From Promethearchaeota archaeon (lineage in GTDB: Archaea > Asgardarchaeota > Lokiarchaeia > Sigyniarchaeales > SOKP01): a DNA stretch of 64,000 nucleotides. This document shows, one piece after another, positions 5,480 to 17,249 of this stretch. The DNA is taken from positions 608,001 through 672,000 of the forward strand of contig JAHPZA010000010.1 in the NCBI GenBank assembly GCA_019058445.1, read 5' to 3'. The notes beneath the pieces were generated by a model. It saw only the letters and a program-made list of their open reading frames with translations, had not been told where the DNA came from and did not search any database. Made by a program: the position numbers and the translations under genes. Positions within the stretch are counted from its first letter, which is position 1; each line of letters opens with the position of its first letter.

Positions 5480-5737
5480 TTAGCCTATTTCTACATCCAT
5501 TTTCTTACGCTCTTCAAGGAGATCGTCAACTACAGATGGATCGGCTAAGGTTGTGACATTTCCAATATCAGTACCAGATGCGATAGCTTTTAAAATTCGA
5601 CGCATAATTTTACCACTTCTGGTTTTTGGAAGGGCATCTGCAAATTGAACGACATCTGGTTGAAAGACTGGTCCGATCTCTTGTCGAAAATGCATTTTAA
5701 TGTCGTGTTTCAAATCTACAAATTTTTCAATTCTCAT
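5480..5737 (-). pseudogene. acs: Orphan 3' fragment of acetyl-CoA synthetase (C-terminal part with [12 protein letters not shown])
   Basis: The last 66 aa are identical to the C-terminus of the acs gene ending at 13051; the rest of the gene is absent. Confidence 0.85.
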
Positions 5738-5831
5738 AAATATTATTATAACTCTGTTTATTTTGTTTTAATCCATAATTTTTTATAACCCTAACTCAAT
5801 ATATTTAAATTAAAGATTATTAAGCAAAACT

Positions 5832-13050: not shown

Positions 13051-15185
13051 TTAGCCTATTTCAACATCCATCTTCTTACGCTCTTCAAGGAGATCGTCAA
13101 CTACAGATGGATCGGCTAAGGTTGTGACATTTCCAATATCAGTTCCAGATGCGATAGCTTTTAAAATTCGACGCATGATTTTACCGCTTCTGGTTTTTGG
13201 GAGAGCATCGGCAAATTGAACGACATCAGGTTGAAATACTGGTCCTATTTCTTTTCGAACATGATTTTTAATATCTCTCTTCAACTCAACTGATTTATCA
13301 ACGCCTTGCATTAAAGTAACAAAACTCCAAATGGCTTGACCCTTAATTTTGTGGGGAAAAGGAGCTACTGCAGCTTCAGCTACCTTCGGATGACTCACTA
13401 TTGCTGATTCGACTTCCATGGTTCCAATTCGGTGGCCTGAAACCTTAATCACATCATCTAATCTGCCTAAAATCCAATAATAACCATCTTCGTCTCGACG
13501 TGCTCCATCTCCAGTATAGTAACATCCCGGATACCTTTCGAGATAAGTCGATTTGAATCGTTCGGTGTCACCCCACACATCTCTTAACATACCAGGCCAT
13601 GGTTGAGCCATACAAAAATATCCTCCTTCATGGGCTTCAGTTACCTCGTCTCCTTCTAAATCAAAAATTATCGGTTTGATTCCTAAGAATGGTAAGCAAC
13701 ATGAACCTGGTTTTGTGGGTGTAGCGGTCGCTATCGGCGTCATTATAAAGCCCCCCGTTTCTGTTAGCTAATGAGTGCGAATTGCAATCATCTTTTGCCA
13801 GTATGTATCAACGATGGGGCATTTTTCCTTTCCTACAATTCTGTGATACCACGTCCATGCCTCAGGGTTTTTCCCAAACTACGCATAAGTTGCATAATTT
13901 ATTGGTTCCCCTACAGTACCTAAGACGCGGATAGAGCTGAGATCATGTTTATTCACAGGCTCATCACCATATCGCATTAACGCTCTTATTGCCGTCGGAG
14001 CTGTATAAAACTGTGTAACCTTGTGTCGCTCAACAATATCCCAAAAGCGGTCCACATTTCCCCCATATGAAGAAATTTCAATTTTTCCTAAAGAATTAGG
14101 ATTTTTAATTTGTATGACTGGGTATGTAGGCACGCTTTCAAACATAAGTGTTGTAGCGCCATTTGCTAATGGTCCATATACAATATAACTATGTCCGGTA
14201 ATCCAACCTATATTTCAGCTAAGCTAAGCGAGTTGCTTTAACTTTCTGCTGTACAATACCAGACATCGCCATCCTTATAATTAAACACCACTCTATGTGT
14301 AAATGAAGTGTAAAGGATATAACCTGCTGTGGTATGTTTCACCCCTTTAGGTTTACCAGTAGTTCCGCTTGTATATAGGATGAATAAGGTGTCTTCAGAA
14401 TCCATTTCTTCACAATCACAATCCTCATTCATACCATCAATGAAATCATGATACCAGATATCCTTGTTGGTGCTTGGAACTTCATTTCCCGTACGCTTTA
14501 CTATTATAACATGCTCTATGGTAGGTACGTCATCGATAATTTGAGCGACATCTGCCATTTTTGGATAGGTTTTTCCCGCTCTAAAGGTCTCATCGCTAGT
14601 AAACAACAATCTCGAATCAGAATCCTCAATCCTATCTTTTACTGCTTCTTTTGAAAATCCGCCAAATACAATAGAATGAATTATTCCAAGTCGAGCGCAG
14701 GCTAACATAATAATTGCCAATTCAGGCAACATAGGGAGCCAAATGGTGACCCTATCTCCTTTTTTGAGCCCAAATTTTTTCATGCCGTTGGCAACTTTAC
14801 ACACTTCTTTTTTTAGCTCGCTAAATGTGAATTTTCTCACTTCTCCGGGTTCATCAGCCTCCCAGATTAGAGCGGTATGGTCGCCTTTCCCTTTTTTGAT
14901 ATGGCGATCGATACAATTATAGCATACGTTTAATTTTCCGCCAACAAACCATTTTCCGGGAAATAAGTCCGTTTTTTCCCAAACTTTATCGTAAGGTTTG
15001 AACCAGTCTAAAGATTTAGCTTGCTCGCCCCAAAACCCCTCCATATCATCAATACTTTGCTGCCACAGTTTTTTATATTCTTCGAAAGACATCCCGGTCT
15101 TTGCATAATCAGGATTTAAATTAACCGGATTGAAAACACGTGTTTCTGTAAGAATCGATTCCATTTTTTTATCTTCTTCTGACAT
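13051..15185 (-). CDS. acs: Acetyl-CoA synthetase (AMP-forming), five exons and four putative BHB introns; 660 aa after splicing
   Basis: Exons 15185-14246, 14213-14118, 14057-13901, 13870-13794 and 13763-13051 total 1983 nt (661 codons with stop). The joined protein has [53 protein letters not shown] and PKTRSGK. Confidence 0.92.
13764..13793 (-). other. Putative BHB intron 4 of acs (30 nt; in-frame TAG)
   Basis: CU-GGCA-AA^A-GAUGAUUGC-AAUUC-GCACUCAUU-AGCU-AA^C-AG, with 8 of 9 inner-stem pairs. Removal restores DTYWQTETGG. Confidence 0.83.
13871..13900 (-). other. Putative BHB intron 3 of acs (30 nt; in-frame TAG)
   Basis: ACCA-AU^A-AAUUAUGCA-ACUUA-UGCGUAGUU-UGGG-AA^A, with a 9-bp inner stem. 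Removal restores GEPINPEAW. Confidence 0.85.
14058..14117 (-). other. Putative BHB intron 2 of acs (60 nt; in frame, no stop)
   Basis: CUACAU-ACCC-AG^U-CAUA...UCCUAA-UUCU-UUAGGA...UAUG-GGGG-AA^A-UGUGG. Removal converts [28 protein letters not shown] to YPDVDRFW. Confidence 0.75.
14214..14245 (-). other. Putative BHB intron 1 of acs (32 nt; frameshifting, with in-frame TAA)
   Basis: UGUA-CAGC-AG^A-AAGUUAAAGC-AACUC-GCUUAGCUUA-GCUG-AA^A-UAUA. Central helix CAGC/GCUG pairs 4/4. Removal restores the Asp codon of CTAD-IGW. Confidence 0.85.
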
Positions 15186-15341: not shown

Positions 15342-17249
15342 ATGGAAAGAATTGATTTATTAGATAAAGACTGGAGAGAGAAATGGAAAAATAAGGAAAT
15401 AACACCCAAAGAGGCAATAGGGAAGATTATTCCTGGAAATCGGGTATTTATTGATACTGGGTGTAGTGAACCGCAGGCATTAACAGATGAATTAATCAAA
15501 CAATCTGAAAAATTGATAGATACTGAGTTAATTCACTTTCTCACAATTTATCCTCAAAAATATTTCAAAGATAAGGCAGAAGATTTGTTTAGGCATAATG
15601 CGTTTTTTATAGGGAAAGCTCTCAGAGAGGAAATAAATAAAGGACAAGCAGATTATACACCTATAATAGCCAGTGAAATTCCTTCATTATTTCTTTCAGG
15701 TCGTAAATATTGTGATGTTGCCTTAATTCAAGTAACTCCCCCGGATCGATATGGTTTTTGCTCATTTGGAGTTAATGTTGATGTTGCTAAGCCAATTGCC
15801 CAATCAGCGTACATTACTATTGCCGAGATAAATCCCCAAATGCCCAGAACATTGGGAAATAGCTTCATCCACATGAAAGAAATTGATCATTTTGTGTATA
15901 ACGACACACCTCTCATAGAATTCCAGTTTAAGGAAAAGAATGAGATTATTGAGAGAATAGGAAAAAATGTAGCAGGTATCATTCAAAATAAATCAACAAT
16001 CCATATTGGTAATGGATATATTCCGAATGCTTGTTTAAATTACTTATTTGAAAAAAGAGATCTTGGAATGCACTCTCATTTTATAACTGATAATATCATA
16101 CATTTAATAGAAAACACTGTTTTAACATGTAGGAAAAAGAACTTCCATCCTGAAAAGATTATTACTAGCTACGCGTTAGGAACAAAAAAGCTATTTGATT
16201 TTATCAATAATAATCCTTACATTGAGTTTTATCCAACAGATTACATCTGCAATCCCCGATATATCGCAATGAATAAAAACATGGTTTCAATAAATCAAGC
16301 ATTACAAATCGATTTAACAGGCCAAGTAAATACTTCAACAAAAGGATACAAATTTCATACTGGAATTGGAGATACTGTGGATTTTATGAGAGGGGCAGCG
16401 CTTTCTAAGGGTGGAAAGCCAATAATTGTTTTACCTTCAACAAGAAAAGAGGGAACGGAATCAACCATAGTTCCCCATTTAGACGAGGGAGCGGGAATAA
16501 TTCTTTCTCGAGCAGATATTCACTATGTTGTAACCGAATGGGGAGTAGCATATCTTCATGGAAGGACAATTCGAGAAAGAGCCTTAGAATTAATATCTAT
16601 TGCCCATCCTGATTTTAGACAGTCTTTATTAGATCAAGCGAAAATATTGAACTACATTTACTCTGATCAATTATTACCCTGCGATGAGGAAGGAAATATT
16701 TGTATTTATCCAAAACACTATGAGACCTATTTTGTGACTAGAGCTGAAGAAAAAGTTATTGTACGCCCGGTAAGGACAACTGACGAACCTCTCTTGAAAA
16801 AATTGTATTATTCTTTAGATGAAAGAGATAGATATTTGAGGTTCTTTGAGGTGAAAAAGGAATTTACACATTCAAAAACACAACATGAGGTTAATATTGA
16901 TTATGAGAATATCTTTTCAATTGGAGCTTTTGTAGGAGATATTACAAATCAGGAAATGGTGGGAAACGCATCTTATTACTATAATCCCCGAAATAATATG
17001 GCAGAATACAGCTTTTTAGTTCGAGAAGATTATAGAGGTAAAGGAGTGGGCTCTTTTCTCTATCACCACTTAATCATCATAGCAAAAGAAAGGGGAATAA
17101 AAGGATTTTATGGAACTATTCACATCCAAAATAAACAGACGGTACAGATCATAAGGAAAGGAGGGTACACAAAAATTACACCTCCAGAAGCAGGAGAAAA
17201 AGAATTATTTTATGAAGTTTTTTTTGATAAAGACAATTCAAATGAATAA
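15342..17249 (+). CDS. Acetyl-CoA hydrolase/CoA-transferase fused to a C-terminal GNAT acetyltransferase
   Basis: DVALIQVTPPD, IDLTGQV, DFMRGAALSKGG and VVTEWGVAYLHG in the N-terminal part; C-terminal VREDYRGKGVG GNAT motif A. Divergent from acs. Confidence 0.88.
   Translation: MERIDLLDKDWREKWKNKEITPKEAIGKIIPGNRVFIDTGCSEPQALTDELIKQSEKLIDTELIHFLTIYPQKYFKDKAEDLFRHNAFFIGKALREEINKGQADYTPIIASEIPSLFLSGRKYCDVALIQVTPPDRYGFCSFGVNVDVAKPIAQSAYITIAEINPQMPRTLGNSFIHMKEIDHFVYNDTPLIEFQFKEKNEIIERIGKNVAGIIQNKSTIHIGNGYIPNACLNYLFEKRDLGMHSHFITDNIIHLIENTVLTCRKKNFHPEKIITSYALGTKKLFDFINNNPYIEFYPTDYICNPRYIAMNKNMVSINQALQIDLTGQVNTSTKGYKFHTGIGDTVDFMRGAALSKGGKPIIVLPSTRKEGTESTIVPHLDEGAGIILSRADIHYVVTEWGVAYLHGRTIRERALELISIAHPDFRQSLLDQAKILNYIYSDQLLPCDEEGNICIYPKHYETYFVTRAEEKVIVRPVRTTDEPLLKKLYYSLDERDRYLRFFEVKKEFTHSKTQHEVNIDYENIFSIGAFVGDITNQEMVGNASYYYNPRNNMAEYSFLVREDYRGKGVGSFLYHHLIIIAKERGIKGFYGTIHIQNKQTVQIIRKGGYTKITPPEAGEKELFYEVFFDKDNSNE

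Follow-up and report, generated by a model that had tools for sequence, protein, structure and literature searches.

What interrupts the gene for acetate--CoA ligase (acetyl-CoA synthetase, acs) of a Loki-type Asgard archaeon, and can the enzyme still be made from it? The question is raised by a 64-kb stretch of DNA from the genome of a Promethearchaeota archaeon (here G000; contig JAHPZA010000010.1, positions 608,001 to 672,000), the whole of which is called the window and to which all unprefixed coordinates refer; other G-numbers denote related genomes. The acs gene occupies 15185..13051 of the window on the minus strand, and reading it with translation table 11 yields four open pieces. The original prediction, made from the letters of this stretch, proposed that the gene is split by four short introns of the bulge-helix-bulge (BHB) type, and that these may be either remnants of introns encoding homing endonucleases or a device that makes expression of the enzyme depend on splicing.

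Here we report a comparative analysis of the locus and of acs genes in related genomes. The gene is quite probably the sole, working acs of G000, split into five exons by four BHB mini-introns that lack an open reading frame (ORF) and appear to be drawn from a genome- and family-wide population of selfish or near-neutral elements. Removal of the introns by splicing is very likely, in view of the covariation of their helices, the purifying selection acting on the exons and the exact repair of the reading frame.

Gene structure and spliced product

The gene was aligned at the DNA level with intronless orthologs, the closest of which (G002) has an unbroken frame of 662 aa. Four extra stretches were found in the G000 gene and no further insert of at least 9 nt. 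The insert coordinates, exon sizes and split codons that had been proposed proved exact, and the first 940 nt and last 713 nt are indeed free of introns. In silico removal of the four inserts leaves a 1983-nt coding sequence (CDS); the 660-aa protein that it encodes is 94.7% identical to that of G002 over its full length with zero gaps. The insertion points fall after nt 940, 1036, 1193 and 1270 of the mature CDS and split the codons of Asp314, Asp346 and Thr424 in phase 1 and that of Ile398 in phase 2 (Table 1).

The family was assigned at the window from exons 1 and 5, which match the N-terminal half (370-394 bits) and the C-terminal part (322-332 bits) of the NCBIfam acetate--CoA ligase models TIGR02188 / NF001208, together with the score of the full-length G002 protein against these two models (952 and 980 bits; curated cut-offs 725 and 657). 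The nearest database proteins are acetate--CoA ligases from metagenome-assembled genomes of Lokiarchaeota or Promethearchaeota. The top PDB match is the Salmonella Acs (E 3e-233), in whose numbering the sites correspond to D306, I390 and T416, the last being two residues past W414, which we take to line the acetate pocket.

Among the 32 ANL-family matches in G000, a genome that is 92.6% complete, no second true acs was found; other ANL-family ligases and one fragment of the acs 3' end were present instead. The possibility that an intact paralogue makes the split copy dispensable was ruled out, as G000 holds no such paralogue. The dN/dS ratio of the exons against G002 is 0.019, with dS saturated, a value that speaks for strong purifying selection on them. 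Introns 1 and 4 recur in identical form on contigs from three further samples of the same study, and four metagenome runs of that study showed no DNA joint lacking an intron; the inserts are therefore not an artefact of assembly.

The reading frame shows what is at stake in their removal. If retained, intron 1 (by a frameshift and UAA), intron 3 or intron 4 would truncate Acs at aa 316, 405 or 432 respectively, and the full-length enzyme therefore depends on their removal, as had been supposed. A retained intron 2 would add 20 aa.

Structure of the four introns

The BHB anatomy was read from the sequence with the aid of RNA folding (^ marks the predicted cut). The outer helix of intron 1 is formed by exon sequence (UUGUA/UAUAG); inward of it lie the central helix (CAGC/GCUG), flanked by the 5' bulge AG^A and the 3' bulge AA^A, and a hairpin of ~9 bp. 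Intron 1 follows the archaeal BHB motif apart from a single extra unpaired A opposite the 5' bulge, and the orthologous introns of G152, G074 and G157 match the canonical motif in full. Introns 2-4 follow a relaxed form of the motif only, with 3/4 central pairs and a clear 5' bulge and inner helix. Intron 2 pairs ACCC/GGGG (A.G and three G-C pairs); its bulges are AG^U and AA^A, and its inner part consists of a CAUA/UAUG stem and an internal hairpin. In intron 3 the central helix is ACCA/UGGG (3/4 pairs) and the 5' bulge AU^A, followed by a 9-bp stem and a 5-nt loop, and the 3' cut falls in an A-rich loop (AA^A). Intron 4 has the central helix GGCA/AGCU (G.U, G-C, C-G, A.A), bulges AA^A and AA^C, a stem of 5+3 bp and the loop AAUUC.

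Cutting by a single rule, between the second and third bulge bases, restores both the frame and the conserved residue at 4/4 acs sites, and does the same for introns found in the EF-2 and aIF2-gamma genes. The recurrent layout of the introns is 1 nt, a 9-bp stem, a 5-nt loop, 4 nt and 2 nt, and it is found in unrelated genes as well. Spliceosomal introns and elements resembling internal eliminated sequences were ruled out, since the inserts have neither GU..AG nor TA..TA ends. Scans of the window for Rfam families and tRNA genes gave no match.

Covariation of the intron helices

At each site the boundaries and the ends that pair with the exons are conserved, and the sequence of the hairpin is nearly free and yet still paired. 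Ten distinct orthologous introns at site E (the site of intron 4) have 88.7% of their cells paired, as against 31-47% when the partners are slid, with six pairs showing double changes. The five orthologous introns at site D (intron 3) give 92.5% against 22-54% and eight such pairs, and site A (intron 1) gives 89.5% against 26-37%, again with eight. At each of the three sites the observed covariation score was reached by 0/500 shuffles. The intron sequences are related, so that the counts overstate independence; the slid controls keep this relatedness and are still far lower. Site D also shows a compensatory change between exon and intron within the central helix (A-U, G-C, G.U). In 17/20 cases the sense strand forms the more stable hairpin, and G.U pairs are used.

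By this comparison the BHB helices are kept by compensatory change at three sites. The proposed BHB nature of the inserts thus stands on the motif, on the single cut rule and on covariation. Across several genomes the apical loops at sites A, D and E are often 5 nt long and of an A-A/C-U/C-U-C form (AACUC, AAUUC, ACUUC, CAUUC, AUUUC), which may reflect shared ancestry or a protein-binding loop.

Intron sites in related genomes

A total of 161 genomes of the class were searched and acs was present in 137, from which the interrupted copies were retrieved. Eight recurrent intron sites were found across the class (A, B, b and C to G; Table 1), all inside 573 of the 1983 nt. Related acs genes carry 0, 1, 2, 4, 5 and 6 introns drawn from these same sites, and there are sister genomes in which acs, at 93-95% identity, is wholly intronless. 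No interruption was found within the first 940 nt of acs in 47 genomes. The longer inserts encoding LAGLIDADG proteins that were expected in relatives under a homing origin were sought at the same positions; all inserts found at these or neighbouring sites in the 137 acs-bearing genomes are 30-60 nt long, and none carries an ORF.

The site-B intron of G157 (42 nt; L058) forms the ACCC/GGGU helix without a mismatch. Unlike the introns of 30-32 nt, the two site-B introns keep the frame and contain no stop, and their retention would merely add 14-20 residues to a variable loop. Several intron-rich copies stand at the ends of contigs or on very short contigs, namely L057 (G074), L058 (G157), L056 (G152) and contigs C67/C162 of G120.

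Clustering and conservation of the insertion sites

The acs introns are clustered, as originally noted. The four sites of G000 span 330 of 1983 nt (P ~0.017 for random placement), and the 7-8 sites of the family span 573 nt (P ~0.003).

Conservation was scored on 92 diverse Acs representatives with a mutual difference of >50%. The claim that the introns lie in highly conserved motifs stood for TAD/IGW (site A, percentile 0.88), GEPI/NP (D, 0.80) and WQ/TETGG (E, 0.97) and failed for the TYP/D site (B, 0.44), which is average; the remaining sites scored 0.26 (b), 0.67 (C), 0.72 (F) and 0.51 (G). The bias toward conserved sites is seen for the four G000 sites jointly (P 0.024), reaches P 0.03-0.06 for all sites and falls to P 0.11 within the central region alone. 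The preference for conserved motifs is thus real but moderate, being partial in G000, where introns 1, 3 and 4 lie at highly conserved sites and intron 2 in an ordinary loop.

Splicing machinery and introns in other genes

G000 encodes a splicing endonuclease EndA, which scores 89 bits on TIGR00324 (cut-off 59.6), and the ligase RtcB (574 bits). Introns of the same kind occur elsewhere in the genome. The EF-2 gene, 12 kb past the end of the window, holds a fully canonical BHB intron in switch I (ACAG/CUGU, AU^A, AG^U, 9-bp stem) that brings in an in-frame UAG, and the aIF2-gamma gene holds a frame-shifting one directly after GHVDHG (AUGG/CCAU, UA^U, AA^A).

Two earlier versions of a genome-wide BHB scan were uninformative, the shifted controls scoring equal to the real data. 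A stricter census that combined structure and frame was noisy, with 201 in-frame loci at 29-33 nt against 174 expected from the out-of-frame control, from which no count can be derived. It did yield a handful of convincing extra cases with BHB-like inserts of 30-32 nt, the removal of which restores conserved motifs (Table 1).

ARAGORN called 23 tRNA genes in the 4.6 Mb of G000, 19 of them intron-bearing and none in the window. Most tRNA genes of G000 are probably too interrupted to be called, and the few, mostly intron-bearing calls fit what is reported of Asgard archaea, whose tRNA genes are heavily interrupted, with multiple introns per gene and repeated apparent gains (preprint 10.64898/2026.10.13.758758).

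Intron turnover in the family

On a gene tree built from exons only, the presence of introns is highly homoplastic, the minimum number of changes being nine at site E, five at D and four at A. The multi-intron alleles of G000, G152 and G074 each stand beside intronless sisters. G074 differs from its sister G019 by 3.9% in nt 0-900 and by 20% from nt 900 on (P 7e-21), and between G019 and G099 the usual distance is kept from nt 900 on. Divergence between G152 and G035 peaks at 880-1300 and around site G, and that between G006 and G009 shows a local peak around site E.

Neighbouring genes

A 95-aa ORF ~7.3 kb from acs duplicates the 3' end of the gene in truncated form; its last ~70 residues are near-identical to the Acs C-terminus (tblastn identity 81% across 91 aa), and one metagenome contig links the two. 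On the other side acs has a divergent neighbour that encodes a butyryl-CoA:acetate CoA-transferase-like domain fused to a GNAT domain, the latter with a weak match to the acetyltransferase Pat. From these domains, the product may be a partner of Acs in handling acetate/acyl-CoA, or may regulate Acs by acetylation.

Table 1. Positions of the acs exons and introns, of the recurrent intron sites of the family and of other features (a slash within a motif or codon marks the insertion point; mature nt, position in the spliced CDS)
Feature	Position	Strand	Length	Remarks
acs exon 1	14246..15185	-	940 nt	Met1 to first base of Asp314; open frame; 93% identity to G002
acs intron 1	14214-14245	-	32 nt	splits Asp314 (G/AU) in TAD/IGW
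acs exon 2	14118..14213	-	96 nt	from ortholog alignment
acs intron 2	14058-14117	-	60 nt	splits Asp346 (G/AU) at TYP/D; in frame, stop-free; boundaries unique
acs exon 3	13901..14057	-	157 nt	from ortholog alignment
acs intron 3	13871-13900	-	30 nt	splits Ile398 (AU/A) in GEPI/NP; in-frame UAG
acs exon 4	13794..13870	-	77 nt	from ortholog alignment
acs intron 4	13764-13793	-	30 nt	splits Thr424 (A/CA) in WQ/TETGG; in-frame UAG
acs exon 5	13051..13763	-	713 nt	includes stop; open frame
Site A	mature nt 940		32 nt	G000, G152, G074, G157
Site B	mature nt 1036		60 and 42 nt	G000, G157
Site b	mature nt 1042		33 nt	G153, G074
Site C	mature nt ~1083		30 nt	G074, G157
Site D	mature nt 1193		30 nt	five genomes
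Site E	mature nt 1270		30 nt	eleven genomes
Site F	mature nt 1431		30 nt	G157
Site G	mature nt 1513		32 nt	G153, G152
EndA gene	G000:C9:770310-770918
EF-2 intron	G000:C10:684116-684145	-	30 nt
aIF2-gamma intron	G000:C4:384841-384869	-	29 nt
Census insert	G000:C6:1128412-1128441	-		thioredoxin (..TV/WCGPC)
Census insert	G000:C9:269043-269072	-		ChlD (MNPEE/GELRPQ)
Census insert	G000:C9:775863-775892	-		Sir2-like
Census insert	G000:C6:396802-396833	-		CODH-like
Census insert	G000:C2:158336-158365	-		alpha/beta hydrolase (HPHPQ/FGG)
acs 3'-end duplicate	5480-5767	-	95 aa
CoA-transferase/GNAT gene	15342-17246	+

Discussion

The acs introns are best read as selfish or near-neutral elements, neither decayed homing-endonuclease introns nor a switch dedicated to acs. 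After transcription each intron would pair with its exon flanks, EndA would cut each 3-nt bulge between its second and third bases, and RtcB would join the exons so that the codons of Asp314, Asp346, Ile398 and Thr424 are restored. The introns would form part of a population of ~30-nt hairpin introns spread over the genome and the family.

Conditional splicing that gates the production of Acs, for instance by carbon source, would resemble HAC1/XBP1, where cutting by IRE1 and joining by RtcB/Trl1 are likewise spliceosome-independent, with hairpin-guided cuts, a tRNA ligase and a change of frame; the nuclease and the motif there are different and the intron is a single regulated one. Such gating could draw on the truncation caused by retaining intron 1, 3 or 4, on the in-frame, stop-free state of both site-B introns, which makes a retained isoform conceivable, and on the Pat-like CoA-transferase/GNAT gene adjoining acs. 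However, sister genomes have the same enzyme intronless or with another subset of introns, and the housekeeping genes EF-2 and aIF2-gamma bear introns of the same kind. Constitutive removal is therefore favoured, and gating is an unlikely function.

The inserts might instead have arisen by deletion from larger BHB introns that carried a gene for a LAGLIDADG homing endonuclease. ORF-less derivatives of this kind do exist for the homing-endonuclease introns of archaeal rRNA genes, which like the acs introns occupy conserved sites, with co-conversion of flanking exon tracts possible. The recurrence of sites and the mosaicism of flanking exons in relatives resemble homing with co-conversion, and an origin from homing-endonuclease remnants has been raised for cbf5 introns too (PMC2738675). 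Against this, no acs insert exceeds 60 nt in any of the 137 acs-bearing genomes, and the acs inserts, unlike the homing introns of rRNA, have neither an ORF nor an ORF-bearing relative among these genomes. Their uniform minimal layout of ~30 nt is shared by EF-2, aIF2-gamma, thioredoxin and ChlD, whereas decay of ORFs would give varied lengths. With no ORF-bearing variant and a shared minimal layout, decay from homing-endonuclease introns is therefore rejected as the likely origin; we regard it as quite improbable.

It is very improbable that acs is a pseudogene sprinkled with small palindromic DNA elements, or that the inserts are removed at the DNA level. The dN/dS of 0.019, the lack of any other lesion in 1983 nt, the status of the gene as the sole acs of the genome and the same kind of insert in EF-2 and aIF2-gamma all speak against it, as do the absence of an intronless DNA joint from the four metagenome runs and the G.U pairs, which favour the sense RNA; in its favour are the stops or frameshift carried by three of the inserts and the truncated duplicate of the acs 3' end 7.3 kb away. 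Hardly credible is programmed translational bypassing, in which ribosomes would hop over inserts kept in the mRNA as in T4 gene 60 or yeast mitochondrial byps, since, despite the superficial likeness of short hairpin inserts with a stop soon after the break point, matching take-off and landing codons are lacking, the covariation takes in the exon-intron central helix and agrees with the EndA cut rule, and all four sites split a codon whose conserved residue exists only in the joined RNA.

The reading of the inserts as spliced mini-introns drawn from a wider population has several observations to contend with. Only intron 1 is near-canonical; in introns 2-4 one of the four central pairs is mismatched and the 3' bulge or outer helix is ill defined, and an endonuclease of broad specificity would therefore be needed. 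A second EndA subunit was not found in the 92.6%-complete genome by tblastn or with the Pfam N-terminal domain. The bias toward conserved sites is modest when all eight sites are counted (P 0.03-0.06), and the comparison of G000 with G002 shows no mosaic divergence. The intron-rich acs copies of relatives lie at contig ends or on short contigs, and chimeric assembly of co-existing strains could therefore mimic a mosaic, a serious caveat to any reading by recombination. The same placement suggests that assemblies are broken by polymorphism in intron presence within populations.

The mosaic divergence in G074 and G152 suggests that their intron-rich block does not share the history of the remaining gene, and it fits the transfer or replacement of such segments through homologous recombination. 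We tentatively attribute the clustering and the recurrence of sites to the gain and loss of intron-bearing segments by homologous recombination, coupled with survival at positions where only precise deletion is tolerated; we count this as a serious possibility rather than as the expected one. More doubtful is the wider idea that these mini-introns move as DNA with no enzyme of their own, homologous recombination carrying intron-bearing segments of acs from one Loki-type lineage to another and co-converting the flanking exons. Such transfer of segments would also explain the clustering.

BHB introns in cbf5 are reportedly the subject of work by Watanabe (2002) and Yoshinari (2006). The cbf5 pre-mRNA of Crenarchaeota carries a BHB intron with lineage-specific presence and loss (Yokobori 2009, PMC2738675). 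In the literature searched, BHB splicing of mRNA has been shown for this crenarchaeal gene only, and nothing was found on protein-gene BHB introns in Asgard archaea, although the absence of a paper is not proof. The crenarchaeal case concerns one intron in one gene of another phylum, whereas the acs of G000 has four introns in a metabolic gene, with up to six in a relative, and unlike cbf5 it shows eight recurrent sites, rapid turnover between sisters and the same class of element in other genes of its genome. Archaeal tRNA introns share with the acs introns the motif, the presumed enzymes (EndA, RtcB) and the occurrence of several per gene. They differ in that the host of the acs introns is an mRNA, in which exact repair of the frame is needed and the bases in the exon half of the motif also have to encode the protein.

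To these systems the acs locus adds a multi-intron gene with recurrent sites, rapid turnover between sisters, a quantified clustering and site bias, and possibly the recombination of cassettes. There is also a practical side. Gene callers split or miss such genes, and the proteomes and metabolic reconstructions of Asgard archaea are therefore affected; in G000 the sole acs would be called as fragments. Asgard archaea are the closest archaeal kin of eukaryotes, and the acs genes of these relatives amount to a natural experiment on the gain and loss of protein-gene introns within them. Recombination of segments, if it is confirmed as the driving process, would build multi-intron genes, recurrent sites and presence/absence polymorphism, and the family would then offer a working model of how protein genes gain and lose introns in the archaea nearest to eukaryotes.

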